Notes: generated by a model not told the origin, from the sequence alone. Shown: positions 10,919 to 57,172, counted from the first letter of the stretch. The stretch: DNA of 64,000 nucleotides from Acidobacteriota bacterium (GCA_965197285.1 OZ240092.1:4726335-4790334); one strand, 5' to 3'. Numbers and translations are program-made.

Positions 10919-10934
10919 CCGCAGAGACGGGACA

Positions 10935-12200: not shown

Positions 12201-12204
12201 TCCC

Positions 12205-13830: not shown

Positions 13831-13886
13831 AACCTCGCAAGTTTCTCTCAAGAATCATCCGGCCACCGGCCGGGGGCTGGGCTGAG

Positions 13887-14528: not shown

Positions 14529-14566
14529 CATCTGCCGGCCACGTCTGTTAGGTTGGACCAGCCGTG

Positions 14567-14851: not shown

Positions 14852-14887
14852 ACCGGGGGGAGACCCAGATGACTCGTAACGCTCGAC

Positions 14888-16612
14888 TTGCCAACTATCC
14901 CTGAAGACGATCGTCCGGCCAGTTGGCAGACCGGCACCTGCGGCCGGATTAACTGGCAGGTGCGGGTCGCGTCTAAGGGGGCCCTCCGGGAACCATCGCA
15001 TCCGATCCGAGTCCTGTTCGCTCGTGGACACTTTCTGAATGAGGCTCTACCTGCGTCCGGCTCAGGCCCGGGTTGGGAGCATCGCCAGCTGGAGACGCTG
15101 TACCTGCGGCATGGACACGGCCAGTTGAGCCGGCTTCTCGAAGGGGACCTTTCCTTCGCCCTGTGGGATGGCCGCGCGATGAGCCTGGTTCTCTCGACCG
15201 ATCGACTTGGTCTGCACCCCATCTACTACTACCGCCACAGCGACAGGTTGTTCGTTTCCTGGAAGGTGGAGGACCTCGTCCCGTACCTCCCCGACTCCCA
15301 ACCCGACATGAGAAGCCTTTCGGCTCACGTGGCGGGCTTTTTGCTGCCCGAGGGCCGGACGTTCTACGACGGAATTCAGAGAATCCCGGCAGGGATGATT
15401 GCGAGGGTGTACGAAGATGATCTTGAGCAGAAGAAGTACTGGAGCCTGGAAGGGTCGAGACCGGCACCGAGGGATGCTGAGGCCTGTGCCGGTGAGCTTA
15501 ACGAGCGTCTCCGCGAAGTGCACCGCAGCTGGCTTCGTGTGTTGCCCGCTCCCGTCGGCATCGCGCTCAGCAGCGGGTTGGATTCCGGCAGCGTCGCAGC
15601 CGTCGTGCGCGGTCTCGATTCCAGCCCATTGATTCGGGCTTTCTCATGGGTTCACCCGGGCTTGCCCGAGGCCGACGAATCGGCCGGGATCGAGGACGTG
15701 TGCCGGACCCTGAATCTGGACCTGACGCGGATTGAAGCGGACCGGCATTGGACGCTGTGTGACCCGCAAGGGCTGACGACTTCCATCCAGGGCCCGGAGG
15801 CTCACTACTACCGGGAGAGCTGGGAAGTGACGTTTCAGAGAGCGAAATCTCAGGGTCACCACTATCTGTTCTCCGGTGTCGGGGGGGACGAGTTGTTCGG
15901 GGGAATAAGTTCCTACACCGATCTATTCCTCTGCGGCCGCTGGTTTTCGCTGCTGCGGCAACTGCTTCGCGAACGCAGGGACGCCGGGTTCGGCCCGCGT
16001 TACATTTTCAGTTCTACCCTGAATCCGTGGCTGCGGAATCGGTTTCCCCGCTGGCAGCTAAGACGGATGAGGTTGCCTGTCTGGCTGACGGAGGCGACCA
16101 GAGAGCGGGTCCGGGGACTCTTGCTGCCGCCTTTTCATTCGAGGCGGGGTGACTTCGGCCGGCAGCTTCGCATCCGTTTCCTGCAGAACCTGGCCCGCAG
16201 CAGACAGATCCTGCAGGTTTCCAGGATCGGTGAGGTCGCCGGGCTGGGGATGATCCACCCCCTGCTGGACCGGCGGGTGGTCGAGTTCGCGGCCAGCTTG
16301 CCCGCTACCCAGAACTTTCATGCCGGGAAGGACAAAATGATCTTGAGACGAGCCTTCCAGGAAATCCTGCCGGCTCCCATCATCCAACGGAAACGAAAGA
16401 TCACCGTCGAGACCCTGTTTCATCGAGGATTGCGCGAACGGGAAACGGCAAAGGTATGGCCCTTGTTGCAGGATATGCGTGCCGCAGACCTGGGGCTTGT
16501 GGATCAGGCTTCTGTGCGCCACCAGTACCGTCAATACCTGAAGGGAGAGGGCAGCGCCCTTGGCATCTGGAATGCACTCACCGTCGAAGACTGGCTGCGG
16601 CGCTACTTCTGA
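14888..16612 (+). CDS. Asparagine synthetase-like protein, lasso-peptide cyclase (C) type, with a TTG start
   Basis: 574 aa. AsnB N-domain remnant (LSFALWDGRAMSLVLSTDRLGLHPIYYY) that lacks the Cys2 nucleophile. PP-loop LSSGLDSGSVAAVV. Downstream ...FSGVGGDELFGG. This architecture, paired with a PqqD protein, is the lasso cyclase signature. Confidence 0.7.
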   Translation: MPTIPEDDRPASWQTGTCGRINWQVRVASKGALREPSHPIRVLFARGHFLNEALPASGSGPGWEHRQLETLYLRHGHGQLSRLLEGDLSFALWDGRAMSLVLSTDRLGLHPIYYYRHSDRLFVSWKVEDLVPYLPDSQPDMRSLSAHVAGFLLPEGRTFYDGIQRIPAGMIARVYEDDLEQKKYWSLEGSRPAPRDAEACAGELNERLREVHRSWLRVLPAPVGIALSSGLDSGSVAAVVRGLDSSPLIRAFSWVHPGLPEADESAGIEDVCRTLNLDLTRIEADRHWTLCDPQGLTTSIQGPEAHYYRESWEVTFQRAKSQGHHYLFSGVGGDELFGGISSYTDLFLCGRWFSLLRQLLRERRDAGFGPRYIFSSTLNPWLRNRFPRWQLRRMRLPVWLTEATRERVRGLLLPPFHSRRGDFGRQLRIRFLQNLARSRQILQVSRIGEVAGLGMIHPLLDRRVVEFAASLPATQNFHAGKDKMILRRAFQEILPAPIIQRKRKITVETLFHRGLRERETAKVWPLLQDMRAADLGLVDQASVRHQYRQYLKGEGSALGIWNALTVEDWLRRYF

Positions 16613-16788
16613 GCATTTTCTGCGCGGCCGGTTGCACACCGGACCGGCGGAAGCCTGCGAAACTGAAATTGGGTGTCTGCAGCAACTCCAGCCTGGCCGG
16701 CCAGTCGCGGACGGCCCGTACTTGCCACGGTTCATTCAATCTGGTATCTGTACACCCGAATGTTGCAGGACCGATCTTTTTGACGGGC

Positions 16789-16999
16789 ATGTCCGACTCC
16801 GTAAGCACCCTGTGGCCCGCCTACTACCTTTTTGGATGCAGTGTTCGGAGCAATTTTCCCTTCAGCATCGAACTCCCTCCCTCTGAACAAGAACCGGACC
16901 TGACGCTCAGCTTTCATCCGGGCACGACGAGCGGCCTGCAGGACGGACTCGAACCCCTGTATGCGAGTGACCTCGTGAACGAGGCCGGCGTGGCTCTAG
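16789..16999 (+). pseudogene. 5' fragment of an HprK-like Ser kinase gene (lasso-peptide kinase type), cut off by the IS1380 insertion at 17000
   Basis: The frame is open from downstream of the cyclase stop; the first ATG is at 16789 (a TTG at 16669 is also possible). It reads ...LEPLYASDLVNEAGVALA and then runs into the IS, producing an IS-derived tail RIMQEP*. It is in frame with the 3' fragment once the IS and one TSD copy are removed. Confidence 0.65.
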
Positions 17000-18650
17000 C
17001 CCGGATTATGCAAGAACCGTAGTTCGGTGTTGAAAACGACTCGAGAAGTGGCCCAACTCGGAAGCGGGCAGGTGTGACAGGCGGATTTGCGAAGAATATG
17101 GGTTGGCGAGGCGTTTGAGTGGTTTGGGGAGTGAATTTCAGACAGATCTGGGCCTGGATGAGTGTCGGAAGCGGTTTTTCGGGGGAGCTGGGAAAAGCTA
17201 ACTGGAGTTCAGGCGACTCAAGACGAGGTGGAAGAGGGGTTGTTCGGGGAAGGCTGAGGAAAGATGGACCCAGATGCGTCGAGTGGTTTGTCGGATCCGG
17301 GCCCCAATCTTGAGGACCCGACGACGTAAGGTTTCGATTTCGAGCTTGTGCCAGGGGGTTCCGTGAAGATAGTCGCGCAGGCGCACGAACATCTGGTAAG
17401 CCAGTGCATGCAGGAGGAGTCGAAACTGATTGGCCAGGAATCGATGACAGCTGAGTCGGTCCATGCTCAGATGATTCTTGAAGGCCTTGATGAAGTTCTC
17501 GGTCTGCCCTCGGTTTGTGTAGTGGTCATAAAGTGATTGGGAGCAGAGATCGTCCCGGTTGGCAACTACAAAGCGACGATTGATGCCACGCTGATCGACC
17601 TCCACTTTGACAATGACGCGACGGGATCGATCCCAGCTGTGGGCTCGATAAAGAAACTCGTCAAACTGACGCTGTTTTTCCTCCAGCTCAAGGAACCTCA
17701 GCCGAGTCGAATCCAGCAGGGGCTCGACCACTCGCTGCAGGCGAGGGTTTCGACTTAACCCAATGACATACTGGAGTTTATTCTCTTCACATTCACAGAA
17801 CTCGTAGAGCCGAGGCGTGGCAAAGCCGCTGTCGGCCCGAATCTCAATCTCGACATCCGTCCCCACTGCTTGTCGGATGGCCTCCACGACTCGCTTCAGA
17901 ATGGGCACGATGTGAGAGGCAGCCCCCTTGTTGCCAGGTCTCAACACGGCACAGACCAGGTCTCCCGTGTCGGCATCGAAGATCAGCAAAGGATGCAGAA
18001 TGTGGTTTCGGTAATACCCGTGGTAGAAGGAGAACTCCTGTTGGCCGTGAGTGTGGTCGTCGGTACTGTCCAGATCCAGGATGATCTTGCTGGGACGTCT
18101 CTTCTTCAGGGAGCGCACATAACGGCCTGGCAGCCACCGGCTCAGACGCATCAGATCCTTCTTGGTGACGGAGTTCTCCAAGCGGGAAAAAGTCGGCTGG
18201 GTGGCCAAATCGGGATCGCTCTCTGGCAACTGATCACAGACTGTCTTGAGCATCGGATCCGAGCGCAGCGTATCGGCGTCATTACAGTCTTCGTAGCCGG
18301 CCACGATCTGCAAGACTCGTTGTCGGATCAACTTCAACAGGTCATGACGAACGTAGCGTCGGTCTCGACTTTCCGCAATACACGAACTGAAGCCCTCGCA
18401 CAATCGATGTTGACGATCCAGGGATCCAAACAACAACCATCCTGCGTCGGAAGTGAGGCTCCCCCCATCAAAACGCGTCGTGATCTTTCTGTGGCTGTGA
18501 AATGGCAGGGTATTCTGGCAGACTGCTTTCAACATTGCCGTAGCTCCTGTTTAGGGTCATTGTTTTTGTAAACCCTTTTATATCAGAGGGCTACGGCTTT
18601 TTCCTGGAGCCAGAATCTCACTCGGATTCAGATCTTTTGCATAATCCGGG
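17000..18650 (-). mobile_element. IS1380-family insertion sequence, copy 1 (1651 bp), flanked by a 4-bp direct repeat CTAG at 16996-16999 and 18651-18654
   Basis: The ends are CCCGGATTATGCAAGAA (17000-17016) and the reverse complement of CCCGGATTATGCAAAAG (18634-18650). They begin with CC, as in the IS1380 family. Perfect 4-bp target-site duplications lie on both sides. It contains a 445-aa DDE transposase. Confidence 0.85.
17198..18535 (-). CDS. IS1380 family DDE transposase
   Basis: 445 aa. The N-terminus LPFHSHRKITTRFDGGSLTSDAGWLLFGSLDRQHRLCEGF...QRVLQIVAGYEDCNDADTLRSDPMLK is typical of IS1380-family (DDE_Tnp_1-like) transposases. It is near-identical to the ORF at 28689..30029. Confidence 0.85.
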   Translation of the reverse strand: MLKAVCQNTLPFHSHRKITTRFDGGSLTSDAGWLLFGSLDRQHRLCEGFSSCIAESRDRRYVRHDLLKLIRQRVLQIVAGYEDCNDADTLRSDPMLKTVCDQLPESDPDLATQPTFSRLENSVTKKDLMRLSRWLPGRYVRSLKKRRPSKIILDLDSTDDHTHGQQEFSFYHGYYRNHILHPLLIFDADTGDLVCAVLRPGNKGAASHIVPILKRVVEAIRQAVGTDVEIEIRADSGFATPRLYEFCECEENKLQYVIGLSRNPRLQRVVEPLLDSTRLRFLELEEKQRQFDEFLYRAHSWDRSRRVIVKVEVDQRGINRRFVVANRDDLCSQSLYDHYTNRGQTENFIKAFKNHLSMDRLSCHRFLANQFRLLLHALAYQMFVRLRDYLHGTPWHKLEIETLRRRVLKIGARIRQTTRRIWVHLSSAFPEQPLFHLVLSRLNSS

Positions 18651-18654
18651 CTAG

Positions 18655-19424
18655 CCCGTCTGTACGAGCATCATGACGGGTATCTCCTCAGAATGGCGGG
18701 AGTTGCGGATTTCGGGATAGGCGAAAAACAGCTGCGATGCTTTCCCAGTAGCGAAAACATCAGCTCGATCGAGAGCCTTCTGCTGCAGGCAGCGATGAGC
18801 TTCTGGCTCGAGACCATCGGTCGTCCGGTTCTACACGCATCCTGCATCGCAGATGCCGACCGGGCCGCAGCCTTTCTGGCTTTCAGCGGCAGCGGGAAGA
18901 GCACTCTGGCGGCGGCCTTCCTGAAAGACGGGTACCGGCTGGTCTCAGATGATTCCCTTCCGGTTGAGATTCACGAGAAACAGGTTCTGGCCTGGCCTTG
19001 TCATCCCCGCATCAAGATGGCACCCGAGCAGGCTAGGTTGTTTCTAGACGAGGTGGATCACCTCCCACCTGCGGATGGTTTCTCGAGTAAGATCGGAGTC
19101 CCGGTCAGGGAAACCTGGTCGGGCAGCTTCGGGACATCTCCCCGAAGACTGGTGTGCTGCTATCTTCCGGAGCACGGGCCGGATCAGAGGGATGTCGTCA
19201 TCGAGCCGGTTCGGGGAGCCGCGGCGGTCATCGAGTTGGTCCGCCACTCGCTGGTTCCCCGGCTGACGGCGGGAGCCGGAATGCAGAAAGAGCGATTTCG
19301 CCTGCTGCACCGGATTGCCACGCGGCTGAAGGTGTGCCCGCCTGGCTTATCCGTCGGGAGTCGACTCCCTGCATGCCGTCCGGGAGGCCGTAATGGCCCA
19401 TCTGACAAGCCTCCCCTAGACTAG
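18655..19424 (+). pseudogene. 3' fragment of the HprK-like Ser kinase gene (listed ORF 18693..19424). The frame is open back to the IS junction
   Basis: HPr kinase C-domain-like P-loop and signature: AFLAFSGSGKSTLAAAFLKDGYRLVSDDSLPV. In-frame codons 18654-18692 (ARLYEHHDGYLLR) have no stop. Together with 16789..16999 they form a 981-nt (326-codon) ORF. Confidence 0.7.
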
Positions 19425-19487
19425 CCCGTGCTCGGGCCAGCCATCGCCCCCGTTTATGTGGCAGGCGCATTGCCGGCGGGGCGTTCG

Positions 19488-20669
19488 TCAGCTTCCACCC
19501 CTCAGACCGCCAAGGGCCAGACGAAGGGGCCTGAGCAGGCGGTAGAGTGGAAAGAGTCCCGGCGGCAGGGAAATCCACCTGCAGTCCCTGCTCGAAGGTG
19601 TCAGCAGAGACCTCTGCAGGTACCGGATCTGATCAAGCCTTCGCTCCCGGAGACGGAGTTTCCGGCCAAGGGGTTCCGGGAAGGGGCCGAGGCCTTCCAT
19701 CGATTCCAGTAAGGAACCTTCAATTTCCTGGGCCAGACGGTGAGCAGGCGCGTCAGTGCGCACGGTGGCGAACCACTCCTGCGGAAGGGAAGCGGAGAAC
19801 AGGCGGGCGGCCAACAGGGCGCCCACCCTCAGCATCCGAAGTCCCCCTCTCTCCCGAGCCCGGGTCTGCGCCTGCTTCCAATCCGCGTGGGAGAATTCGT
19901 GGAGGGCCCAGGCCAGGTCACAGATCCATTTGGGCGACGACCAGAGATGCTTTGCGCCGTGGGCGGCGATCAGCAGCAGGAGATCTCCCGCGGAAAGAGT
20001 ACGAAATTCATGACCCGAGATGGCAACTGCTCGTCTGTCGTTCCAGAGCTTCTCAAAGGGCAACTCAAGGGAGAAATATCGAGGCAGCGCTGCCCAGTGA
20101 ATCTCAACTGTCATGCGGGGGTCGTCGCGCGTCATCATGGCCTGATCCCACCACAGAAAACGCAAGAAGTCGGGTCGTGAGAAAAACTCCTTTAAGTGCC
20201 CGCGGTCCCATTCGGGCAACCAGTGGTCGTATCCACGACTGAGCAGGAGATGCAATACAGGCAAAACGTCCTGCCGATGAATCAGCAGGTCCAGATCATC
20301 GAAGCTTCTCGATCCCAGGTTGCGATAGCAGAGGGTGGCCAGGACAGGCCCCTTGACAGCCAGGACTCGGATATTGCTGTTCTCGATCTCCCGGCAGACT
20401 CGGATCAATTCACGAACTCGTATCAGATTGCGAAGATTGTTGCCGTGGAAAATGTGCGACAGCTTTTCCCGATTCTCAGGCGAGAGGCCGGGTCGGTCCT
20501 TGAGCCGCCATGCCACGATCGGAAGCAACCTGGCGTGCTCGGCCCGCTTCAGGAAATCCTCCCAGGCCGGCGCGAGCTTCGATTGTTGCTCGATCGCAGA
20601 AAAAGACGCGTCTGTCGGTCGCGGGGATGCGAGATCAAACAGAACCCGGGTCAAATCTGAATCAGGCAT
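19488..20669 (-). CDS. NTP_transf_5-type uncharacterised nucleotidyltransferase
   Basis: 393 aa. ...VLAVKGPVLATLCYRNLGSRSFDDLDLLIHRQDVLPVLHLLLSRGYD...VEIHWAALPRY matches the PF14907-like pattern. Its start is 2 nt from the acyl-CoA dehydrogenase stop. It is convergent with the kinase gene. Confidence 0.6.
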   Translation of the reverse strand: MPDSDLTRVLFDLASPRPTDASFSAIEQQSKLAPAWEDFLKRAEHARLLPIVAWRLKDRPGLSPENREKLSHIFHGNNLRNLIRVRELIRVCREIENSNIRVLAVKGPVLATLCYRNLGSRSFDDLDLLIHRQDVLPVLHLLLSRGYDHWLPEWDRGHLKEFFSRPDFLRFLWWDQAMMTRDDPRMTVEIHWAALPRYFSLELPFEKLWNDRRAVAISGHEFRTLSAGDLLLLIAAHGAKHLWSSPKWICDLAWALHEFSHADWKQAQTRARERGGLRMLRVGALLAARLFSASLPQEWFATVRTDAPAHRLAQEIEGSLLESMEGLGPFPEPLGRKLRLRERRLDQIRYLQRSLLTPSSRDCRWISLPPGLFPLYRLLRPLRLALGGLRGGS

Positions 20670-20671
20670 GT

Positions 20672-22504
20672 TTAGAGAATAGGCAGGTCTCGCGCTCTCC
20701 CGACCATTTCTTCCAGGCCGTATACTCCAGCCTCAGTCCAGGGCTGCTCGGTCTCCAGCAGCCGCCGGGCTAACCGATAAAGAAGAACATCGTCATTCGA
20801 CCACAGATCCTGAAACAGTCTTTTTACCTTTCGCCTGGACTGGCGGCAGAAGAGATCGGCCAGGTGTACCGCGTCGTCGCAGTCGTCCCGTTTGGCACTG
20901 CGCATGGCATGGGCACGGGAAACGGAGGCGGCCATCGCGAATAGTTCGTTTGCGATATCGACGAGGCGGAACAGGAAAGCCTGTTTGTTCTGGAGTCTGG
21001 GACCGTGGACCACCATCCCGTGGAAAACCTGGCGAGCCAGCTTCCGACTCATGCGCTCCACGAAACGCAGATGGGGCGCCAGTGCACGGAAGTTCCCATA
21101 GCGGGGCCACCGCCCCCAGCCCAGCCAGCGGGTTGGATACCAGGAGGCATAAAAGGCGAGGATGGCCGGCAGCGCCTTGAACTTGGCACCTAGAGCGCTG
21201 GCGGGATCCACCAGCAGTCCCGCCACCTGAAGGTGTTTGTCCACAGCCTCGCGGGCCATAAAAAGGTGCATGATTTCGCTGGAGCCCTCGAAAATTTTGT
21301 TGATTCGAAAATCGCGCATCATTCGCTCGACTCCGATCGGATCCTCTCCGCGGGCCGCCAGCGAAGACTCGGTCTCGTATCCGCGCCCTCCGCGAATCTG
21401 CATCGTGTCGTCGATAATCTCCCAGCCGGTACAGGTATTCCACTCCTTGGCGGCAGCGGCTTCCAGCCGGATGTCGTACCCCCCTCGATCGGACATTTCG
21501 GTGGCCAGCCTGGCAATCGACTCCATGGCAAACGTCCTGGCAGCCATGCGGGCAAGCATGTGGGCGATGCTCTCGTGCCGCCCGATGGGTTTCCCCCACT
21601 GAACTCGCTCGCTACTCCATTTGCGACAGATCTGGAGACACATCTTGGCTGCGCCGACGGCTGCGTTGGGAATGGAGAGCCGGCCGTCGTTGAGGGTCGT
21701 CAACGCAATCTTGAGTCCTTTCCCGGCCTCGCCGATCAGGTTCTCACGAGGCACTCGCACGTCTTGAAAACAGATCACGGCATTGGCCAGCGCCCTCAGG
21801 CCCATGAAATGACATCGGCGCTCGATGGTGACGCCCGGCCAATTGGTTTCGACCACGAAGGCACTGATTTTTTCGGTCTCGGAGTCCACTGCCATGACCA
21901 CCAGGAGTCCGGCCAGCGTGCCGTTGGTACACCAGAGTTTGGTCCCATTCAGGACGTAAGCGTCCCCTTCCGGGGTCAGTTCCGCCCGCGTCGCCAGCCG
22001 GGCAGGATCGGAGCCCACATCGGGTTCCGTCAACGCAAACGCGGAGATTTCCCCGGAGGCGCAGCGGGGAAGATATTTCTTCTTCAGCTCCTCGGACCCA
22101 AACAGCTTCAGGGGCTGGGGAACCCCGATGGACTGGTGGGCGGAAAGCAGAGCGCTCAAATTCGCGTCGCGGCTTCCCAGCAGCTCCATGATGCGCGCGT
22201 ACTCGACCTGGGAGAATCCGAGGCCGCCGTATTTCCTGGAAATCTTCATGCCGAAAGCCCCCAGGCGCCGCAGTCCTTCGACGACCTTCTCAGGATAATC
22301 TCCTTCCTCATCGATTCCGGCCGAGTCGACTTCTTCGATCAGGAAGCGGCGGAACCGCTCGCGAAACTCGGCGAATTCGGGGCGCTCCTTCCCGGACAGG
22401 GGGTAGGGGTGGATGAGATCGAGACGGAAGCTTCCCAAAAACAGCTCTCGCAAAAAACTGGGGGCCTCCCACGTCTTCTGGCGAGAGGCCTCCGCCACTT
22501 GCAT
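20672..22504 (-). CDS. Acyl-CoA dehydrogenase family protein (long form with a C-terminal extension). The start is assigned at internal Met 22504
   Basis: ACAD N/M/C domains are present (...FALTEPDVGSDPA..., ...YVLNGTKLWCTNG..., ...IRGGRGYETE...IFEGSSEIM...). The listed ORF start at 22966 adds 154 Arg/Pro-rich residues that overlap the upstream gene by 430 nt. Met at 22504 (MQVAEASRQ...) removes that overlap. Confidence 0.75.
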   Translation of the reverse strand: MQVAEASRQKTWEAPSFLRELFLGSFRLDLIHPYPLSGKERPEFAEFRERFRRFLIEEVDSAGIDEEGDYPEKVVEGLRRLGAFGMKISRKYGGLGFSQVEYARIMELLGSRDANLSALLSAHQSIGVPQPLKLFGSEELKKKYLPRCASGEISAFALTEPDVGSDPARLATRAELTPEGDAYVLNGTKLWCTNGTLAGLLVVMAVDSETEKISAFVVETNWPGVTIERRCHFMGLRALANAVICFQDVRVPRENLIGEAGKGLKIALTTLNDGRLSIPNAAVGAAKMCLQICRKWSSERVQWGKPIGRHESIAHMLARMAARTFAMESIARLATEMSDRGGYDIRLEAAAAKEWNTCTGWEIIDDTMQIRGGRGYETESSLAARGEDPIGVERMMRDFRINKIFEGSSEIMHLFMAREAVDKHLQVAGLLVDPASALGAKFKALPAILAFYASWYPTRWLGWGRWPRYGNFRALAPHLRFVERMSRKLARQVFHGMVVHGPRLQNKQAFLFRLVDIANELFAMAASVSRAHAMRSAKRDDCDDAVHLADLFCRQSRRKVKRLFQDLWSNDDVLLYRLARRLLETEQPWTEAGVYGLEEMVGRARDLPIL

Positions 22505-22536
22505 TGATTTCCGTTCTGAGGGACCGGCCTTGGCGC

Positions 22537-23817
22537 TCACGACGGACCCTCCCCCATCGGGGCCAGCACTCCGTTGCCGTCGAAAGTGAGATCGCGGAGA
22601 TCCCCGATCTGAACGATGTTGGGGTGGTCTCGAAGTTCTTCCAGCATGGGCTCCGAGGCCTCGAGGGCGTTTAGACTGAGAGTGTCGTGGATTCGAATCA
22701 CGCGCTTGTCCTGAGGCCGGCTCCGGCCGCCTACCGAAAGCAAAGCCAGGCGAAGCGTCTCTCGATCGGTGGAGAAATGCATGGGGATTCGTCCGGGGAG
22801 GGTGAAGTGGGCGGTGAGGGCATTCAGGTAGGTAGCCTCCTTGTCGATCTTGTCCACCAGGTGCTGCGTGCAAAAATCGGCCAGCCCGACTCCGACGGCA
22901 TTCCCGTGGGTGCCTCTGCTCAGATCCAGGACCGCAATCCGATCGACATCTGGAGTGTCCTGCCACAGCGAGTTGAAGCCGAACCAGCGCCCGGTCACAT
23001 TCGGGTCCAGACCGGTTCCACTGATGTTCTTGCCAATGCGGTCGATGATGAGCAAGTCGATTTGGGACGCCGGAAGCACAGGCATCAGCTCTTTGGCTCG
23101 AAGCAGCAGCTGCTGCTCTCTCTCCACGATCTCCGCCGCCGGAATCAGCTCCAGGTGAGCCGGTTGGTGGTAGGCATTCTCAATAATGGCCAGCCCCATG
23201 AGCACTTTGCCGCCGGCGATGATGCTTTCGGCTTTGGTGATGATCAACCGTTCATAGCCCAGCGAGTGAGTGAAGCGGTGAAGATCACTGGCCCCGGGGA
23301 TGTTGCCCAGGCCCACCGCCAACATCTTCATTAAGCCGCTTTCGGCCTTACCCTTGAAATCCGTATGCGGCTTGACTCTATTCACAACAATGATTCCATC
23401 CGACTCGAAGGCCGCGCGGTCCACATGCACGGGAACGCCGTCTACGGTCGGGCTCATCTCCACCACGTCCATCGAGGCGATCAGTGGAGCTCCGAGGTTC
23501 GCTTCGGTAATCCCATAGTCGGACAAGATCTGCGTCTGCCCCTCGACCGTCCCGCCTCCGTGGCTCCCCATGGCCGGTACGATGAAAGGGTCAGCACCGG
23601 CCTTCTTGAGCCGCCCGACGAGGATCCGAATGATCTCCGAGAGTCGGGAGATTCCTCGGCTCCCGGCGCACACGGCAACTCTCCGGCCCGAGGTGGCTTC
23701 CAGGAGTTCGCTTTTCCGCTGGAATTCCGAGAGCAGGGTCGACTCGATATTCTCCACGTATTCGGGATCGAATTGCTGCGTGACCGTGGCTATCTGAGGA
23801 AATGAAAAAGTCGCCAT
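22537..23817 (-). CDS. LarA-like (lactate racemase N-terminal domain/DUF2088-like) protein. The functional assignment is tentative
   Basis: 426 aa. The layout resembles LarA: ...RVAVCAGSRGISR...FIVPAMGSHGG...KPHTDFKGKAESGLMKM... The conserved Ni-pincer Lys context is not clearly present. It is the first gene of a minus-strand trio with the ACAD and the NTase. Confidence 0.35.
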   Translation of the reverse strand: MATFSFPQIATVTQQFDPEYVENIESTLLSEFQRKSELLEATSGRRVAVCAGSRGISRLSEIIRILVGRLKKAGADPFIVPAMGSHGGGTVEGQTQILSDYGITEANLGAPLIASMDVVEMSPTVDGVPVHVDRAAFESDGIIVVNRVKPHTDFKGKAESGLMKMLAVGLGNIPGASDLHRFTHSLGYERLIITKAESIIAGGKVLMGLAIIENAYHQPAHLELIPAAEIVEREQQLLLRAKELMPVLPASQIDLLIIDRIGKNISGTGLDPNVTGRWFGFNSLWQDTPDVDRIAVLDLSRGTHGNAVGVGLADFCTQHLVDKIDKEATYLNALTAHFTLPGRIPMHFSTDRETLRLALLSVGGRSRPQDKRVIRIHDTLSLNALEASEPMLEELRDHPNIVQIGDLRDLTFDGNGVLAPMGEGPS

Positions 23818-23930
23818 TGGGGATAAACTAGGCTACCTTCGGCACCGGGGGTTGTCAAAACGTCCCGGGACTTTACGGGCGGCAGCGATTTGGGAGAGAC
23901 TGGATCGCAGCGACCGCCTGGCGGCAACTC

Positions 23931-24095
23931 ATGAGTGAAAGCAACCACACTGTCTCCCCTGGAGCCGACCCGGAGCCGGAAGGGGAATCGTCGGAATGGT
24001 CTGAGAAGCGCTTCGCTTTTCTTTATGCCGTCGTCCTGACTTACACGCTGGGAACGATCTGGGCCCTCTGGCTTTTCTCCAGAATATTTGACTGA
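23931..24095 (+). CDS. Small membrane protein (54 aa), translationally coupled to the SSS transporter via a TGATG overlap. Possibly a symporter small subunit (DUF4212/DUF485-like)
   Basis: [54 protein letters not shown]. Its stop TGA at 24093-24095 overlaps the ATG at 24095 of the symporter. It was not in the ORF track because it is under 60 aa. Confidence 0.4.
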
Positions 24096-25759
24096 TGCAC
24101 CTTCTGGATTGGCTGATCGTCGCGGTTTATCTCGCCTACATCGTGATCGATGGGATTCGGCGGAGTCGGGCCACACACGAAATCAAGGGCTACTTTCTGG
24201 CCAATCGGAGCCTGCCCTGGTGGGCCGTCGGGCTCTCCATCATGGCTACCCAGATGAGCGCCATTACGCTGGTCGGGACGACCGGACAGGGTTACCAGGA
24301 CGGCATGCGCTTCATCCAGTTTTATTTCGGCCTGCCTCTGGCAATGGTGATCTTGTGCCTGACGGTGGTTCCCTTTTTTCACCGCTCCGGGGTGTTCACT
24401 GCTTACGAATTTCTGGAACGACGCTTCGACTCTCGGACCCGCACCCTCACCAGTGCGCTTTTCTTGGCCTCGCGCGGTCTGCAATGTGGTGTGATCATTT
24501 CGGCGCCCGCCGTCATTCTTTCAATCGTCCTGGAATGGAACCTGATCCTCACGGTCCTGGCGATAGGACTTCCAACGGTCGTCTATACGATGATCGGAGG
24601 TGTCCAGGCCGTCACCTGGGCCGACGTGAAGCAAATGGCCCTCATCGTGACGGGGATGGCGGTCGTACTGATCATCATCATCGGGCAGCTTCCAGAGGAA
24701 GTCTCGTTTTCCGGCGCCCTTCAGATCGCGGCTGCGGCGGGCAGGCTCGAGACGGTGGACTTCTCCTTCGAGCCTTCTCGCACCTATACGTTCTGGTCGG
24801 GTCTGCTGGGGGGGACCTTTCTGATGCTGTCTTACTTCGGGTGCGACCAGAGTCAGGTCCAGCGCTACCTGACGGCGCGCTCGGTGACCGAAGGCCGGGT
24901 CTCACTACTGATGAGCGCCTTCCTGAAGATCCCGCTTCAGTTTGCGATTCTCCTCATCGGTGTGCTGGTTTTCGTGTTTTTCAACTTTGCGGCGACGCCC
25001 ATCGTTTTCAGCCCCGCCGAGCTCGAGAAGGCTGAGGCGCGAAGCGGGTTTGCCCAGCTGGCCAGGCAGCACGATGAGGTTCAGGATCAGCTCAGGGAGA
25101 CCGCCATCCAGTTCGCAGCCGCGCCCGACGGGAGCGGACAGGGGCGCCGCGATTATCTCCAGGCGCTGAGACACAGAGACTCAATCAGAGAGGATCTGGG
25201 CGAGATGCTGGGCGAGGAAGTCAATGACGTCAACTACGTTTTCCCTTATTTCGTAACCCACCATCTTCCCATCGGAATCGTGGGAATTATGATCGCGGCT
25301 ATATTCGCCGCTGCCATGTCAAGCGTTTCCGCTGAACTGAACGCGCTGTCCGCTGCGACCGTCATGGATATCTACCGGCGCCTGATCCGGAAGGAGGGCA
25401 GTGACACCCACTACCTTCGGGTGTCCAAGCTGGTCACCGCGGGATGGGGGTTGATGGCCTGTACGGTAGCGGTTTATGTCAGCCGGCTGGGTTCTTTGAT
25501 CGAAGTCGTGAACCTCCTCGGGTCGTTTTTTTACGGTTCTCTTCTGGGCGTGTTCGTGCTCGCGATCACAACCGCTTGGGCAACAGCGCGGGCCGCCTTC
25601 GTGGGATTGCTGGCCGGGATGGGGGCGGTTGCTCTCTTTTCCCTGACGACGGACTATTCGTTTCTCTGGTACAACCTGGTGGGAGTTGTGACTGTTTGCC
25701 TGGTGGCATTTGTGGTCTCGCTCGGGGAGAAGATCTATGGGTGGCGCAAACCGGCCTGA
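24095..25759 (+). CDS. Sodium:solute symporter (SSS) family transporter
   Basis: 554 aa. Multi-TM protein with SSS signature regions (...[29 protein letters not shown]...). Confidence 0.8.
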
Positions 25760-25784
25760 GTTCCGGCGGTGGAGTGAATCGAGT

Positions 25785-28472
25785 ATGAGGGTCAGCACCG
25801 CTGCCAGGACACTGGTTGTGTGGCTTGCGTGCTCTTTAGTTGCGGCTCACGAGCCGCGCTTTGATCAAGGTGCAGCCGGCCTGGCGCTGGCGCTGCGACG
25901 ACTTCCGGTCACCGGTTCGCTACTGCAGGTCACGGCCCATCCCGATGATGAGGACAATGCCCTTCTGGTGTTGACGCGACGGGGACGCGGCTTCCGGACC
26001 GGGCTGCTCACTCTGACCCGGGGAGACGGAGGCCAAAATGAGATTGGGGCGGAGCTGTTCCAGGCCCTGGGCATCATCCGCACCGAGGAACTCATGTCGA
26101 CGCATCGATACGACGACGCCCGGCAGTTCTTCACCCGGGCCTACGAATTCGGCTATTCCTTCAGTGTTGAAGAGACGCTTGAGCGCTGGGGAGAAGAAGC
26201 CATTCTGGAGGACATGGTGCGGGTGATCCGGAGCTTCCGACCCGGAGTGATCCTGGCACTCCCCAGGGGCGGTGAAGGCGGGGGGCAGCATCATCAGGCC
26301 TCGGCGCTGCTGGCCGAAAAGGCGTTCCACGCGGCCGCCGATCGAGCCCGCTTTCCGGATCAGATACGGGAAGGACTGCGCCCCTGGAAGGCGGCGAAGC
26401 TGTACGAACAGTACCGATGGCACGGCGGCGGGCCCGGCCGCGAATCGGCTCAGCGGTCGCCGCGGGTCGTCGAAGTGTCCGCCGGCGCCCACGATCCCAT
26501 TCTGGGCCGGACCTATGCTCAGGTAGGGACCGAGGCGCGTGCCATGCACAAATGCCAGGGAATGGCACAGCTGCAGGCCGCTCCGGGCGAGCGCTCATCG
26601 GCGTGGAACCCGGTTGCCTTTCGGGACATCGAAATGACCGGGGGCGAAGCCGATCTGTTCGATGGAATCGACACGAGTCTGATGTCACTCACGCACTTTG
26701 CCGTGACAGATCTTGCCGATCTACCCTTTCTGGTTCCTTCAATACGTCAGATTCAACTGGCCATCCGCCGGGCCGGGGAAGCATTCGACCCTCGCGACCC
26801 GGGGTTGACGACGCCCTTCGTGGCCGAAGGCCTGCGGCGGCTGCGCATGCTGCGACAGGATTTCCACGTTGCCGGGCTTGCCCAGGAGGACGAGTACGAG
26901 GTTTTCTTTCTCCTGGAAAGGAAAGAAGAGGATTTTGTCCACGCTCTCAACCTGGCCAATCAGCTGGTCCTGGAGGCAACGGTGGATGACGGTCGAGTGA
27001 CGCCGGGGCAGGGCCTGAAGCTGACCCTGGTGCTCTTCAACGGCGGCTCTCATCCGGTCACAGTCGAGTCCTGGGAGGCGACAACCAGCAAGGCCTGGAA
27101 AATCGAGTATCCGGGCAGCGACTTCTCCAATTTCGTACTGGGCCCGGGCGAGGCCCGCGGCTTCGTGGTCGGCGTGCGGGTCAGTTCCGATGCCCCCGTT
27201 ACCGAGCCCTACTGGAGCGGTCCCATGGAAGACGCGGATCGATTTCGGATCCAGGGAAAAGACGCCTCCCGTCCCTGGGGTCGCCCTGAGCTGCAGGTAC
27301 GGGTCGGGTACAGAAGCTTTGGAGTGGAGGGGACTCTGGGCACTTCTGCCGAGTACCGGTATGCCGGTCCCTGGGTGGGAGGGGAGCAGCGCCACGATCT
27401 GATGGTCGTCCCGCGGATTTCTCTCGCCGTGAGGCCCCAGGTTGCCGTGCTTCCTCTCTCGGCGGCTCGAAAGGGGCGGAAGCTGCGCGTTCAAGTCACC
27501 CACAACGGGAGACAGGCAGTTGAGGGTGAAGTTGCCCTGGAGGTGCCGCGAGACTGGACAGTCGTCCCACCGTTGCGCCCTTTGAAATTTGAGCGGGAGG
27601 AAGAATCGATCGCGACAACCTTTACCGTCTACCCACCGGAGAATCTCAGGGAGGGCACCTTCGGGATCCAGGCGATGGCGAAATTCGGGGGACAGAGCTT
27701 TCATAGAGGATTCCAGGTCATCGATTACGATCACATTCAGCGGAGACACCTGTACCGGTCCGCTCAGGTTTGTCTCCAGGTCCTGGATGTTGAGATCGAT
27801 CCCACGGTCAAGGTCGGCTACATCGTGGGCGTGGGGGACTATGTTCCGGAGGCTCTGGCCCAGCTGGGGGTAGACGTCGAGTTGCTGGGACCCGACGAGC
27901 TGGCTTCTTCCGATCTGGATCGATTCGATACCATCGTTACCGGAGTTCGTGCCTATCTCAACCGGGAGGATCTGAAGGCCTACAACAATCGCCTGCTCGA
28001 GTGGGTGGAACGAGGCGGAACCCTGATCGTCCAGTACAACAAATTCGAGTTCAACGGCCCGCGAGCGGGGCGCGCCGCAGGCGGGCCGTCCCCCAGTCCC
28101 TTTGCTCCCTTTCCGGTTGTGGTTGGCCGCGGTCGCGTCACGGACGAGCGCGCGCCGATTCGAGTGCTGACCCCGGATCATTCACTTTTTCTGACCCCCA
28201 ATCAGATCGGTGAGGAAGACTGGCAGGGATGGGTGCAGGAGCGGGGACTCTATTTTCTGGGCCGGAAGGATGCGCGCTACCGCGATCTGGTCGCCACTGA
28301 GGATCCGTTTCCCTTCAACGCCGGTGAAAAGCTGGGCTCCCTAGTCGAAGCCCGTCACGGAAAAGGTCGCTGGATCTACGTCGGCCTGGGCCTGTGGCGC
28401 CAGCTACCGGCCGGCGTCCCCGGAAGCTACCGCCTGCTCGCAAACCTGGTCGCTTTGGGCCGACGCCCCTGA
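25785..28472 (+). CDS. Large PIG-L/LmbE-family N-acetylglucosaminyl deacetylase-domain protein with a long C-terminal extension. The C-terminus is class-I glutamine-amidotransferase/ThuA-like
   Basis: The start is assigned at Met26 of the listed ORF (MRVSTAARTLVVWLACSLVAAHEP signal-like, preceded by GGAG). The LmbE signature LLQVTAHPDDEDNALL is present. A C-terminal block ...VGYIVGVGDYVPEALAQLGVDVELLGP... resembles ThuA/DJ-1-like folds. Confidence 0.6.
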   Translation: MRVSTAARTLVVWLACSLVAAHEPRFDQGAAGLALALRRLPVTGSLLQVTAHPDDEDNALLVLTRRGRGFRTGLLTLTRGDGGQNEIGAELFQALGIIRTEELMSTHRYDDARQFFTRAYEFGYSFSVEETLERWGEEAILEDMVRVIRSFRPGVILALPRGGEGGGQHHQASALLAEKAFHAAADRARFPDQIREGLRPWKAAKLYEQYRWHGGGPGRESAQRSPRVVEVSAGAHDPILGRTYAQVGTEARAMHKCQGMAQLQAAPGERSSAWNPVAFRDIEMTGGEADLFDGIDTSLMSLTHFAVTDLADLPFLVPSIRQIQLAIRRAGEAFDPRDPGLTTPFVAEGLRRLRMLRQDFHVAGLAQEDEYEVFFLLERKEEDFVHALNLANQLVLEATVDDGRVTPGQGLKLTLVLFNGGSHPVTVESWEATTSKAWKIEYPGSDFSNFVLGPGEARGFVVGVRVSSDAPVTEPYWSGPMEDADRFRIQGKDASRPWGRPELQVRVGYRSFGVEGTLGTSAEYRYAGPWVGGEQRHDLMVVPRISLAVRPQVAVLPLSAARKGRKLRVQVTHNGRQAVEGEVALEVPRDWTVVPPLRPLKFEREEESIATTFTVYPPENLREGTFGIQAMAKFGGQSFHRGFQVIDYDHIQRRHLYRSAQVCLQVLDVEIDPTVKVGYIVGVGDYVPEALAQLGVDVELLGPDELASSDLDRFDTIVTGVRAYLNREDLKAYNNRLLEWVERGGTLIVQYNKFEFNGPRAGRAAGGPSPSPFAPFPVVVGRGRVTDERAPIRVLTPDHSLFLTPNQIGEEDWQGWVQERGLYFLGRKDARYRDLVATEDPFPFNAGEKLGSLVEARHGKGRWIYVGLGLWRQLPAGVPGSYRLLANLVALGRRP

Positions 28473-28512
28473 AGCGTTCCACAATATACCAACCAAGGAA
28501 CCGTCAGAGGCA

Positions 28513-28554
28513 GGAACGACAGTGACTGCGCCGCGGCTCGAAAGCCGCCGAGAA
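28513..28554. repeat. 42-bp dispersed repeat, copy A (CCAAGGAACCGTCAGAGGCAGGAACGACAGTGACTGCGCCGC), followed by a small hairpin. It lies 16 bp upstream of the IS1380 copy-2 insertion site
   Basis: About 40 of 42 positions are identical to 57108-57149 (CCAAGGAAACCGCAGAGGCAGGAACGACAGTGACTGCGCCGC). Confidence 0.6.
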
Positions 28555-28573
28555 AACCTCTCAACCGGCTTAG

Positions 28574-30228
28574 CCCGGATTATGCAAGAGATCTAAATTC
28601 AAGTGAGATTTGGGCCCAGAAAAAAGGCCGTAGCTCTCTGATATAAAAGGGTTTAGAGAAACAAAGACCCTAAACAGGAGCTACGGCAATGTCAAAAACA
28701 GTCTGCCAGAATACCCTGCCATTTCATAGCCACAGAAACATCACGGCTCGTTTTGATGGGGGGAGCCTCACTTCCGACGCAGGATGGTTGTTGTTTGGAT
28801 CCCTGGATCGTCAACATCGATTGTGCGAGGGCTTCAGTTCGTGTATTGCGGAAAGTCGAGACCGACGCTATCACGTTCGTCATGACCTGTTGAAGTTGAT
28901 CCGACAACGAGTCTTGCAGATCGTGGCCGGCTACGAAGACTGTAACGACGCCGATACGCTGCGCTCGGATCCGATGCTCAAGACAGTCTGTGATCAGTTG
29001 CCAGAGAGCGATCCCGATTTGGCCACCCAGCCGACTTTCTCCCGCCTGGAGAACTCCGTCACCAAGAAGGATCTGATGCGTCTGAGCCGGTGGCTGCCAG
29101 GCCGTTATGTGCGCTCCCTGAAGAAGAGACGTCCCAGCAAGATCATCCTGGATCTGGACAGTACCGACGACCACACTCACGGCCAACAGGAGTTCTCCTT
29201 CTACCACGGGTATTACCGAAACCACATTCTGCATCCTTTGCTGATCTTCGATGCCGACACGGGAGACCTGGTCTGTGCCGTGTTGAGACCTGGCAACAAG
29301 GGGGCTGCCTCTCACATCGTGCCCATTCTGAAGCGAGTCGTGGAGGCCATCCGACAAGCAGTGGGGACGGATGTCGAGATTGAGATTCGGGCCGACAGCG
29401 GCTTTGCCACGCCTCGGCTCTACGAGTTCTGTGAATGTGAAGAGAATAAACTCCAGTATGTCATTGGGTTAAGTCGAAACCCTCGCCTGCAGCGAGTGGT
29501 CGAGCCCCTGCTGGATTCGACTCGGCTGAGGTTCGTTGAGCTGGAGGAAAAACAGCGTCAGTTTGACGAGTTTCTTTATCGAGCCCACAGCTGGGATCGA
29601 TCCCGTCGCGTCATTGTCAAAGTGGAGGTCGATCAGCGTGGCATCAATCGTCGCTTTGTAGTTACCAACCGGGACGATCTCTGCTCCCAATCACTTTATG
29701 ACCACTACACAAACCGAGGGCAGACCGAGAACTTCATCAAGGCCTTCAAGAATCATCTGAGCATGGACCGACTCAGCTGTCATCGATTCCTGGCCAATCA
29801 GTTTCGACTCCTCCTGCATGCACTGGCTTACCAGATGTTCGTGCGCCTGCGCGACTATCTTCACGGAACCCCCTGGCACAAGCTCGAAATCGAAACCTTA
29901 CGTCGTCGGGTCCTCAAGATTGGGGCCCGGATCCGACAAACCACTCGACGCATCTGGGTCCATCTTTCCTCAGCCTTCCCCGAACAACCCCTCTTCCACC
30001 TCGTCTTGAGTCGCCTGAACTCCAGTTAGCTTTTCCCAGCTCCCCCGAAAAACCGCTTCCGACACTCATCCAGGCCCAGATCTGTCTGAAATTCACTCCC
30101 CAAACCACTCAAACGCCTCGCCAACCCATATTCTTCGCAAATCCGCCTGTCACACCTGCCCGCTTCCGAGTTGGGCCACTTCTCGAGTCGTTTTTCAACA
30201 CCGAACTACGGTTCTTGCATAATCCGGG
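28574..30228 (+). mobile_element. IS1380-family insertion sequence, copy 2 (1655 bp), flanked by a 4-bp direct repeat TTAG at 28570-28573 and 30229-30232. It is inverted relative to copy 1
   Basis: The ends are CCCGGATTATGCAAGAG (28574-28590) and the reverse complement of CCCGGATTATGCAAGAA (30212-30228). Perfect TTAG duplications lie on both sides. It sits between convergent genes (PIG-L and bshC). Confidence 0.85.
28689..30029 (+). CDS. IS1380 family DDE transposase
   Basis: 446 aa. It differs from the copy-1 transposase by a 1-codon indel (RRYHVRHD versus RRYVRHD) and a few substitutions (L/V, A/T, N-terminus MSKTVCQ versus MLKAVCQ). Confidence 0.85.
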   Translation: MSKTVCQNTLPFHSHRNITARFDGGSLTSDAGWLLFGSLDRQHRLCEGFSSCIAESRDRRYHVRHDLLKLIRQRVLQIVAGYEDCNDADTLRSDPMLKTVCDQLPESDPDLATQPTFSRLENSVTKKDLMRLSRWLPGRYVRSLKKRRPSKIILDLDSTDDHTHGQQEFSFYHGYYRNHILHPLLIFDADTGDLVCAVLRPGNKGAASHIVPILKRVVEAIRQAVGTDVEIEIRADSGFATPRLYEFCECEENKLQYVIGLSRNPRLQRVVEPLLDSTRLRFVELEEKQRQFDEFLYRAHSWDRSRRVIVKVEVDQRGINRRFVVTNRDDLCSQSLYDHYTNRGQTENFIKAFKNHLSMDRLSCHRFLANQFRLLLHALAYQMFVRLRDYLHGTPWHKLEIETLRRRVLKIGARIRQTTRRIWVHLSSAFPEQPLFHLVLSRLNSS

Positions 30229-30262
30229 TTAGCGTCAAACCTCAACGTGGAACGTGGAATTC

Positions 30263-31894
30263 CTAGAGCCGTAGCAGCCGATGGGAGAAGCAGTAGGGAT
30301 CGGTCAGCTCGGTAACCTCATTCAGGAAACCCGGCCCCCGATCCATCAGGAAGTGGTTGAAGTTGATGACCCGCTCCTGCAGTTTGTTCAGGGGTCTGAG
30401 ATGGTTCAGAAGTTGATCGAGGTGCTGCTTCAGCGAGGGGGCGACACGGCGGTGATTCGCAACGAAACGGGACTTCACTTTGTCGAGCTGGTAGAGCATC
30501 TTTTGGCGCGTTTTCTCGAGCATCGCCGCCACCGTCGGATCGGAGGCGTGGATCAACTGCTGAAGCTCCTCAAGGCTCTGCCTCAACTCGGCCGACACCG
30601 AATCCATCTGCTGGAGGGCCTCACCCTGGTGACTTTCCCTGAGAATCGTCTCGGTGAGATCGTCTGTTGATCTCTGCAGCACATCCAGGGCAGTGATGTG
30701 GTGGCGTTTCAAATGCCGCTGGTCGAGGTGATCCACGATGGTGAAACCGGCCCTGGGCAGAATCACCGGCTCCAGGCCCCAGCGGTCGGCAACGGCGTTC
30801 AACTGCGCGAAATAGGCTACCTCGGAAGGGCCGCCCACGTAAAAAGCTGTGGGGAAGAGGTAGTCTTGAAGGATAGGGCGGAGCAGTACATTGACACCCA
30901 GTCGCCCCGGGTCGTCCAGGGCCATCTGCAGCAGCTCCCCGCTCGAAAAAGAAAGCTCTCTCCGTTCCTTGGCTCGGTACCTGCCCTTGTCCCAGAGCAG
31001 TTTGTAGCGGCGTGACCCGTCTACCAGAAAAAGGAGGCTTTCCTGCTCGTCTACCCAGACCTGCGGGTGATAGCCCGCCTCGACAATCTCCTGATTGCGC
31101 TCCACCAGAGCATCGATGATCGACTGCTGCCCGGTCACGGCGATCTCGAAAAAGCGTGAAAGTGAGTCCTGGTAGCCTTCCATGAGGGGATCGAAGACAA
31201 TCAGGCCATAGTCGCTGAAGAGGCGGCTGATCCAGCAGGCGAATGCGTCTCGAAAGCTGCGGTCCTTCCGGTAATCCCTCTCCAGGCCGTCCAGAACCAC
31301 ATCGGAAAAGGGGTGGAACTGGGTGCTCGAGCGCAATTGTTCGAGGCAGGTGCCGACTGAGGACAGGGGCACGGTTCCCGCCATTCGACACGAGTCGTCG
31401 GGATCTTCCGGGAACGCGACCGGGACGAGGCTTGCATCCGAACCCACAAAATGGGTGCAGCGGATTTCCTCGAAATCCGAGTCGTTGGAGGCCAGCCAGA
31501 ACACGGGCACCGCGTTGACCCCTTGCTGCCGCAGGCTCTGGGCCAGCTGGATGGCCGTCGCTGCCTTGAAAACCGTGTAGGAGGGCCCGCCGAACAGGGT
31601 GACCTGCTGTCCGGTCACCACAGCCACACAGTCTTCGGACTCAAAGGCCTCGAGATTTCGAGCCAGAGGGGTGCCCCCGTGAAGAGTACTGTTATATCTG
31701 GTCAGCGCGGCTGCAAAAGGCTTTCTGGGGACTCCGCTGGAGCGGCGGGCCCGCTCCAGGCGTTGACCAAGCTCCGGCTCTGTCAGAGGGGGCGGATTAT
31801 AAAAATCCCGCACTCTTTCGAACTGATGAGCGAAATCGACAAACAGGGGATTCTGTCCCGGAAGGCTTCCGAACGGCAGGCACTCACTATCCAT
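30263..31894 (-). CDS. bshC: Bacillithiol biosynthesis cysteine-adding enzyme BshC-like
   Basis: 543 aa. The BshC hallmark VVTGQQVTLFGGPSYTVFKAATAIQLAQ (G-Q-Q motif) is present in a protein of BshC length. Confidence 0.6.
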   Translation of the reverse strand: MDSECLPFGSLPGQNPLFVDFAHQFERVRDFYNPPPLTEPELGQRLERARRSSGVPRKPFAAALTRYNSTLHGGTPLARNLEAFESEDCVAVVTGQQVTLFGGPSYTVFKAATAIQLAQSLRQQGVNAVPVFWLASNDSDFEEIRCTHFVGSDASLVPVAFPEDPDDSCRMAGTVPLSSVGTCLEQLRSSTQFHPFSDVVLDGLERDYRKDRSFRDAFACWISRLFSDYGLIVFDPLMEGYQDSLSRFFEIAVTGQQSIIDALVERNQEIVEAGYHPQVWVDEQESLLFLVDGSRRYKLLWDKGRYRAKERRELSFSSGELLQMALDDPGRLGVNVLLRPILQDYLFPTAFYVGGPSEVAYFAQLNAVADRWGLEPVILPRAGFTIVDHLDQRHLKRHHITALDVLQRSTDDLTETILRESHQGEALQQMDSVSAELRQSLEELQQLIHASDPTVAAMLEKTRQKMLYQLDKVKSRFVANHRRVAPSLKQHLDQLLNHLRPLNKLQERVINFNHFLMDRGPGFLNEVTELTDPYCFSHRLLRL

Positions 31895-57140: not shown

Positions 57141-57149
57141 CTGCGCCGC
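57108..57149. repeat. 42-bp dispersed repeat, copy B. It forms the 3' end of the truncated phosphotransferase ORF and precedes the long hairpin
   Basis: See copy A. Confidence 0.6.
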
Positions 57150-57172
57150 AGCGCGGAAGGTGCCGGGGGGCC

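Follow-up and report, generated by a model that had tools for sequence, protein, structure and literature searches.

An inverted pair of insertion sequences at an Acidobacteriota locus

The DNA analyzed here is a stretch of 64,000 nucleotides from an Acidobacteriota bacterium (GCA_965197285.1 OZ240092.1:4726335-4790334), referred to as the window. It carries two inverted copies of one insertion sequence (IS) of the IS1380 family, separated by 9,923 bp of chromosomal DNA (Table 1). Copy 1 interrupts an HprK-related kinase gene, and copy 2 occupies the spacer between the PIG-L and bshC genes, which are convergent. The bracketed segment contains the 3′ part of the kinase gene, genes for a nucleotidyltransferase, an acyl-CoA dehydrogenase and a LarA-like isomerase, a sodium:solute symporter (SSS) gene, and the PIG-L gene, the same content that was listed in an initial annotation of the window. 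We find it very likely that the two copies are independent insertions, and that the intervening 9.9 kb is native and retains its ancestral orientation, with neither crossover nor composite transposition in its history. We further regard it as somewhat probable that copy 1 has been excised in a sister lineage.

Table 1. Positions of the two element copies, their target-site duplications and the surrounding genes in the window
Feature	Coordinates	Strand	Details
IS1380-family element copy 1	17000..18650	minus	1651 bp; terminal inverted repeats 17000-17013, 18637-18650
IS1380-family element copy 2	28574..30228	plus	1655 bp; terminal inverted repeats 28574-28587, 30215-30228
Left target-site duplication of copy 1	16996..16999		CTAG
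Right target-site duplication of copy 1	18651..18654		CTAG
Left target-site duplication of copy 2	28570..28573		TTAG; same in L007
Right target-site duplication of copy 2	30229..30232		TTAG
Site 3 CTAG	19416..19419		Empty here, occupied in L007 (L007 3145-4796); Logan contig ends CCCCTAG/CCCGGATTATGCAAG
Copy 1 transposase	17198..18535	minus	445 aa; NF033539 371 bits, PF13701 476 bits
Copy 2 transposase	28689..30029	plus	446 aa; 7 positions differ from copy 1 transposase
Kinase 5′ fragment (HprK-related, interrupted)	16780..16999	plus	73 codons; in frame with 18655 onward after IS removal
Kinase 3′ part	18655..19419	plus	P-loop GSGKST; ancestral stop TAG 19417-19419
Operon	19488..23817	minus	PF14907 nucleotidyltransferase 19488-20669; acyl-CoA dehydrogenase from 20672; isomerase 22537-23817
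SSS transporter and large PIG-L-domain protein	24095..28472	plus	SSS 24095-25759; PIG-L-domain protein ending 28472
bshC-like gene, outer neighbor of copy 2	30263..31894	minus	TIGR03998 402 bits

A repeat finder applied to the whole 64 kb returned the pair as the sole long inverted repeat, with arms reaching 16991-18658 and 28566-30237, and no further copy of the element lies elsewhere in the window. Junction reading and alignment of the arms reproduced, exact to the base, the element coordinates and both target-site duplications (TSDs) of the initial annotation, and its family call was borne out as well. The window contains exactly four instances of the 14-mer terminal inverted repeat CCCGGATTATGCAA, one per element end; shuffled windows gave 0.33 matches even with two mismatches permitted. 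The two ends of one copy have 14 of 16 nt in common, and the TSDs directly abut both inverted repeats in both copies. The copies differ from each other in 32 alignment columns, 23 of them inside the first 190 nt at the transposase-5′ end, with the others being a 3-bp in-frame indel, five scattered single-nucleotide polymorphisms and a 1-nt indel. The longest runs of perfect identity measure 526 and 488 bp.

Each element contains a single long open reading frame (ORF) that encodes a full-length transposase, and the two proteins are 98% identical. They score 371.3 and 372.4 bits against NF033539 (NCBIfam 'IS1380 family transposase'; cut-off 180 bits), covering profile positions 2-418 of 419, and about 476 bits each against PF13701, whereas the IS4 and IS1634 models gave 23 and 18.5 bits, respectively, and with the copy 2 transposase only. 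A phmmer search of the transposase against the PDB returned nothing relevant, with no detectable similarity to any solved transposase. A protein identical to the copy 1 transposase is encoded at no fewer than four other loci (L001-L004) in two metagenome assemblies, and an exact look-up of the copy 2 protein among contigs gave no match.

The element is a new member of the IS1380 family. The family in ISfinder is characterized by a single long ORF, an element length of about 1.55-2.0 kb, short inverted repeats starting with CC, and a TSD of 4-5 bp, all of which are found here. With IS1380 of Acetobacter and ISEcp1 of Enterobacteriaceae it shares a single-ORF transposase above the NF033539 and PF13701 cut-offs, a length of about 1.65 kb, CC-starting ends and the 4-bp TSD, but its host belongs to the Acidobacteriota. 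It further differs from ISEcp1, which generates 5-bp TSDs in AT-rich DNA, by its strict CTAG/YTAR target, and it shows no sign of the one-ended mobilization of flanking DNA of ISEcp1, since both inverted repeats have a TSD immediately next to them. Elements of the IS5/IS701 type with YTAR targets likewise generate 4-bp TSDs at CTAG, CTAA or TTAG, as is the known preference of IS5, but have a transposase of a different family.

Two independent insertions into a collinear locus

The positions of copy 1 and copy 2 are referred to as site 1 and site 2. Deleting 17000-18654, which is the IS together with one CTAG, opens a 511-codon frame across the junction and restores a kinase gene of 326 codons from 16780, encoding an HprK-related protein with a GSGKST P-loop. 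The HprK profile models reach no further than the P-loop region, which lies downstream of the junction, and continuity was therefore examined by a homologue search. The restored kinase aligns without gaps through the junction (NEAGVALA/RLYEHHDGYLL, with the slash at the junction) to the full-length homologues P0001-P0007, which are 77-85% identical to it. The 5′ fragment aligns to the N-termini of P0001-P0009 and P0079, and the start at 16780 is that of the gene call in the same genome (L008). Therefore, the sequence immediately inside the bracket naturally continues the sequence immediately outside it.

The intact 327-aa kinase P0079, a cluster mate of the kinase fragment, led to two loci, L011 and L012, with about 96-97% identity to the window. 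In L011, both site 1 and site 2 are free of an IS, and the locus aligns with the window in three blocks of one orientation (L011 7121-10224 with window 13877-17003, 10217-20042 with 18651-28459, and 20071-20984 with 30265-31178), with the same gene order and orientation. This collinearity excludes an inversion of the segment and, since it shows the cargo to be native, also excludes its delivery as a composite. Site 1 in L011 reads GGCTCTAGCCCGT, with one CTAG, and L012 likewise has one CTAG. Copy 1 is missing from L011, L012, L007 and L091. In L007, which is from another sample (ERZ25072670) and, in unique DNA, is 99.9% identical to the window, copy 2 occupies the same TTAG between the same flanking sequences. 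Having copy 2 without copy 1, L007 indicates that the insertions were separate events, and copy 2 is the older one because the sister lineage shares it. Without the IS, the spacer between PIG-L and bshC is about 127 bp in the window lineage versus about 10 bp in L011 (20043-20070), and the last few PIG-L codons also differ between the two; the spacer difference is an older indel located exactly where copy 2 landed.

TSD formation upon insertion can be read directly from these alleles. A single CTAG is present in the empty site 1 of L011 and L012 and in a further target at the end of the kinase gene (site 3) that is empty in the window and L011, and the arrangement is CTAG-IS-CTAG where either site is occupied.

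Inverted IS copies around cargo are the classical layout of a composite transposon, known from Tn5 and Tn10 with several kb of genes between the arms, and both outer ends of the present pair are functional inverted repeats. Joint arrival of both copies with the 9.9 kb is nevertheless vanishingly improbable. The outer 4-mers differ, CTAG on one side versus TTAG on the other, copy 1 splits a gene of which one half lies outside the bracket and the other inside, the same cargo occupies the same locus in the IS-free L011, and L007 has one arm without the other. Thus, in contrast to Tn5 and Tn10, the outer ends lack a shared TSD, the genes between the arms are native to the locus, and the two arms did not arrive at the same time.

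We also consider it very unlikely that the segment was inverted by homologous recombination, either once and then masked, or as a flipping segment of which one state was assembled. The identical stretches of 526 and 488 bp would be ample substrate, and about 17% of related copies (among the matches listed) have discordant flanks, the signature of inter-copy crossovers. In this pair, however, each copy retains its own TSD, the two halves of the kinase gene stay in register on either side of copy 1, and the orientation is the same as in the IS-free L011 and in L007. The initial annotation had argued from the TSDs for two independent insertions with neither inversion nor composite transposition, and these conclusions now stand on kinase continuity and on the relatives as well.

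The annotation had also warned that collapsed or chimeric repeats would invalidate its logic. The architecture recurs in a second assembly of the same genome (L005/L006; ENA ERZ25072076, 4.04-Mb contig), which matches the window at 99.97% identity across 21.6 kb. L006 and the window show six differences (17563, an ATC indel at 28870-28872, 29465 and 29535), every one of them inside the IS copies, where consensus calling is unstable, as an assembly artefact might predict. Such an artefact as the source of the arrangement is extremely improbable, given that all four junctions between IS and flank have the same sequence in the window as in L005/L006, that those of copy 2 recur in L007 from the other sample, and that the empty and footprint alleles fit the predicted breakpoints to the base. 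In all, the junctions are supported by three assemblies, which represent two samples.

A probably vacated site in the sister lineage

Site 1 of L007 (2373-2380) contains no IS and reads GGCTCTAGCTAGCCCGT, that is, CTAGCTAG, with both copies of the TSD kept. The same CTAGCTAG is present at 1949-1956 of L091, a Logan contig of run ERR13605531 that was assembled independently. It shifts the kinase frame, and the kinase in L007 is called as two proteins of 81 aa and 241 aa. The outgroup alleles and the protein alignment indicate that a single CTAG is ancestral at site 1, so the simplest history of the site runs from CTAG through CTAG-IS-CTAG, as in the window, to CTAGCTAG in the sister lineage. 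It is somewhat probable that CTAGCTAG is an excision scar, which would have formed by flush cleavage at the IS ends, or by 4-nt staggered cleavage and fill-in, followed by end joining. Other routes of IS loss do not lead to this allele. Slippage between the 4-bp repeats would give back one CTAG, recombination would not remove the element precisely at its ends, and copy-out-paste-in transposition leaves the donor intact. IS excision mediated by IEE (IS-excision enhancer) concerns the precise excision of copy-out-paste-in elements and is a misfit to a scar that keeps both TSDs.

By chance, assuming independent 4-mers, 0.75 occurrences of CTAGCTAG are expected in the 854 kb of fetched loci, while four distinct sites are present, two of them directly abutting IS ends. 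This excess is suggestive rather than conclusive support for a footprint. The further doublets are located in L026 (4011-4018), L064 (7633-7640) and L067 (4739-4746), and the two at an IS abut its 3′ end, which may reflect re-insertion beside an old footprint.

The sister lineage also has an IS at site 3. The copy there in L007 is flanked by CTAG on both sides, has the orientation of copy 1, and sits 766 bp from site 1 on the TAG stop codon of the kinase gene; L091 ends in CCCCTAG/CCCGGATTATGCAAGAACCGTA.

Several points weigh against our reading of the locus. The footprint is a single event, and L007 and L091 may stem from the same reads. That copy 1 hopped locally to site 3 in the sister lineage is unsupported, since the copy at site 3 departs from it at about 25 positions and carries the other 5′ haplotype. 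No alignable empty allele of site 2 was found; the short PIG-L/bshC spacer of L011 has a different sequence and was rejected as such an allele because it does not align with window 28460-28573 plus 30229-30264. Although a single inversion is excluded, an even number of flips, which would leave no trace, or an inverted minority subpopulation, whose isoforms would be invisible in consensus assemblies, is possible. In addition, the fine sequence inside the repeats may be consensus noise.

The small number of observations bears most directly on the footprint. With one event, a 4x contig in L007, a second contig perhaps from the same run, and other CTAGCTAG sites in the fetched loci, the doublet could be an unrelated 4-bp tandem duplication by replication slippage, or a consensus error. 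We regard this explanation as unlikely. The extra CTAG is found exactly where a 99.9%-identical sister genome has CTAG-IS-CTAG, less than one such doublet is expected across the fetched loci, two different assemblers agree on it, and the surrounding 3 kb are 99.5-99.9% identical to the window, which speaks for good local quality.

If the doublet is indeed a scar, it can be compared with the excision products of piggyBac, a superfamily of cut-and-paste transposons of eukaryotes. IS1380-like transposases have been paired with piggyBac (PMC5718144). The element described here likewise has a 4-bp palindromic target with a central TA (CTAG, versus TTAA for piggyBac), a 4-bp TSD, and, as we infer, excision. 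Excision of piggyBac is seamless and restores one TTAA, whereas the single excision seen here kept both TSD copies. A return to a single target was thus not the outcome in the only excised allele seen, and seamless events would resemble never-occupied sites. Literature searches turned up nothing on how IS1380 elements move or on CTAG as their target, and to our knowledge the transposition mechanism of the family has not been worked out biochemically. The chances are about even that the CTAGCTAG allele is the first natural excision footprint of an IS1380-family element, one that would be left by cut-and-paste movement with the donor resealed by fill-in and end joining and both targets kept.

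Target preference and the information content of the TSDs

For a survey of targets, species-representative genomes were scanned with the IS 3′ end, and complete copies were pooled with the other fetched loci. The 3′ end was found at 78 or more loci in seven Acidobacteriota metagenome-assembled genomes, which also points to the phylum of the host, and the element is abundant in a group of Acidobacteriota. Among the matches listed, to which all counts of copies and flanks in this section refer, the 4-nt flanks are identical in 50 of 60 distinct complete copies, and a 5-nt match occurs in none. The base counts of the TSD in these 50 copies are C45, T50, A46 and G43 along the four positions, and the right flanks (n=79) are CTAG in 49 cases, TTAG in 10, CTAA in 10 and CTGG in 4. 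A YTAG target had been proposed from the two copies of the window; the survey instead gives CTAG first and TTAG and CTAA equally after it, that is, CTAG, or in a looser form the palindromic YTAR. This preferred target is rare in the window, with 34 occurrences observed versus 233 expected from base composition, a seven-fold under-representation. CTAG includes the amber stop codon, and all three preferred targets, CTAG, TTAG and CTAA, contain stop triplets; gene ends may be favored as landing sites.

Because the element almost always targets CTAG, a test based on TSDs is blind to about 42% of copy pairs: random pairs have indistinguishable TSDs with a frequency of about 0.42. The TSD argument at the present locus hangs on a single C/T difference, with copy 2 happening to sit in TTAG, and its answer is still right. 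One detail of its wording needs correction. An inversion had been said to leave each copy with one CTAG and one TTAG, and on the plus strand the two copies would read CTAG...CTAA and CTAG...TTAG.

Discordant 4-nt flanks, found in the approximately 17% of copies mentioned above, are always between allowed variants, e.g., CTAG/TTAG, CTAG/CTAA or TTAA/CTAG. They are candidate traces of inter-copy crossovers elsewhere, for which they are the expected outcome, or of C>T or G>A mutation. Copies with CTAG/CTAA, CTAG/TTAG, TTAG/CTAG or TTAA/CTAG flanks are located in L002 (2885-4537), L033, L044, L052, L061, L065, L068, L078 and L086. At L066, the right IS flank (minus orientation) shows the IS end, then CTGG and at once CCCGGATT, where two tandem copies appear to have one common 4-bp junction.

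Sequence exchange between copies

The initial description of the pair as un-recombined holds only in the sense of crossovers. Among nine copies from two closely related assemblies, two haplotypes are distinguished in alignment columns 14-63 and again in columns 84-176, and all four combinations are seen. Sequence has therefore been exchanged among copies, likely by gene conversion as judged from these mosaics of two 5′ haplotypes. Copy 1 has the common 5′ haplotype and copy 2 the other. As their 5′ haplotypes differ and the copy 1 transposase is identical to that of L001-L004, copy 1 is not a local daughter of copy 2. The differences between the window and L006 are either ongoing conversion or consensus noise in the repeats; the ATC indel among them makes the copy 2 transposase 446 instead of 445 aa. 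The earlier suggestion that the bracketed segment is poised for inversion is reasonable for the element generally, given the discordant flanks, and, given the long identical stretches, plausible for this pair.

Genes inside and around the bracket

Copy 1 inactivates an HprK-like kinase that belongs to a cassette resembling those for ribosomally synthesized and post-translationally modified peptides (RiPPs). The RiPP-like gene set (14564-16612, 16780-19419 and 19488-20669) encodes a PqqD-like protein, an asparagine-synthetase-like enzyme, the HprK-like kinase, and the convergent PF14907 nucleotidyltransferase. The asparagine-synthetase-like enzyme has a sub-threshold 175-bit match to the lasso-peptide cyclase model, and neither a leader protease nor a precursor was recognized among the genes of the set. 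The kinase gene of the window has another change, an extra C at approximately 19337-19339 (CCC, versus CC in L011 and L007), which shifts the last 30 or so codons relative to L011, L007 and the homologues and removes the conserved C-terminus RLxYPSGxDSL. Either the gene, already broken, has suffered a second lesion, or the extra base is a sequencing error in a homopolymer.

The isomerase of the minus-strand operon is a nickel-pincer enzyme (LarA-like, group 22). Copy 2, in its intergenic position, probably does no harm. A promoter-like site directed outward from copy 2 (30195-30223) is within chance expectation and was discarded, and a search of the whole window against Rfam gave no matches. 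An intergenic repeat of about 45 nt (…AAGGAAaCcGcAGAGGCAGGAACGACAGTGACTGCGCCGC…) with a GC-rich hairpin after it is dispersed, occurring at window 28494-28535 and 57110-57150 and at L001 574-614, with one copy about 35 bp upstream of copy 2. At approximately 12226-13632, an IS110-family transposase gene lies between a PQQ-repeat gene and maf; the matching slot of the 97%-identical relative L011 (5654-6898) has an IS256-family (Transposase_mut) gene instead, and the slot looks like an intergenic IS hot spot.

Proposed order of events and significance

In the mechanism we propose, the DDE transposase would recognize the 14-bp terminal inverted repeats and integrate the element into the rare CTAG, tolerating TTAG and CTAA, through a 4-bp staggered cut whose repair would duplicate the target. 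Copy 2 would have inserted first, into the TTAG between the PIG-L and bshC genes, and copy 1 later, into the CTAG inside the kinase gene, thereby splitting it. Copy 1 would be the younger, polymorphic copy and a representative of the sub-type that is presumably multiplying now. In the sister lineage, copy 1 would have left by cleavage precisely at its ends, and the resealed chromosome would have retained both CTAG copies. Movement would thus be by cut-and-paste, with a donor break that could be repaired by end joining.

The IS pair itself is ordinary and a matter of routine annotation, and it was a correctly read case of TSDs recording the history of IS copies. What the present analysis adds is a refined target (CTAG/YTAR), a quantified weakness of TSD-only logic for a target-specific element, and a probable excision footprint. 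Three alleles of site 1 (never occupied, occupied, and apparently vacated with a scar) together with a neighboring alternative insertion are found in near-identical genomes, from which we conclude that the element is active now in uncultured Acidobacteriota. The footprint would be a rare sequence-level clue to the chemistry of IS1380-family transposition and, if it is real, doublets such as CTAGCTAG could serve as fossil markers of sites where an IS once resided.

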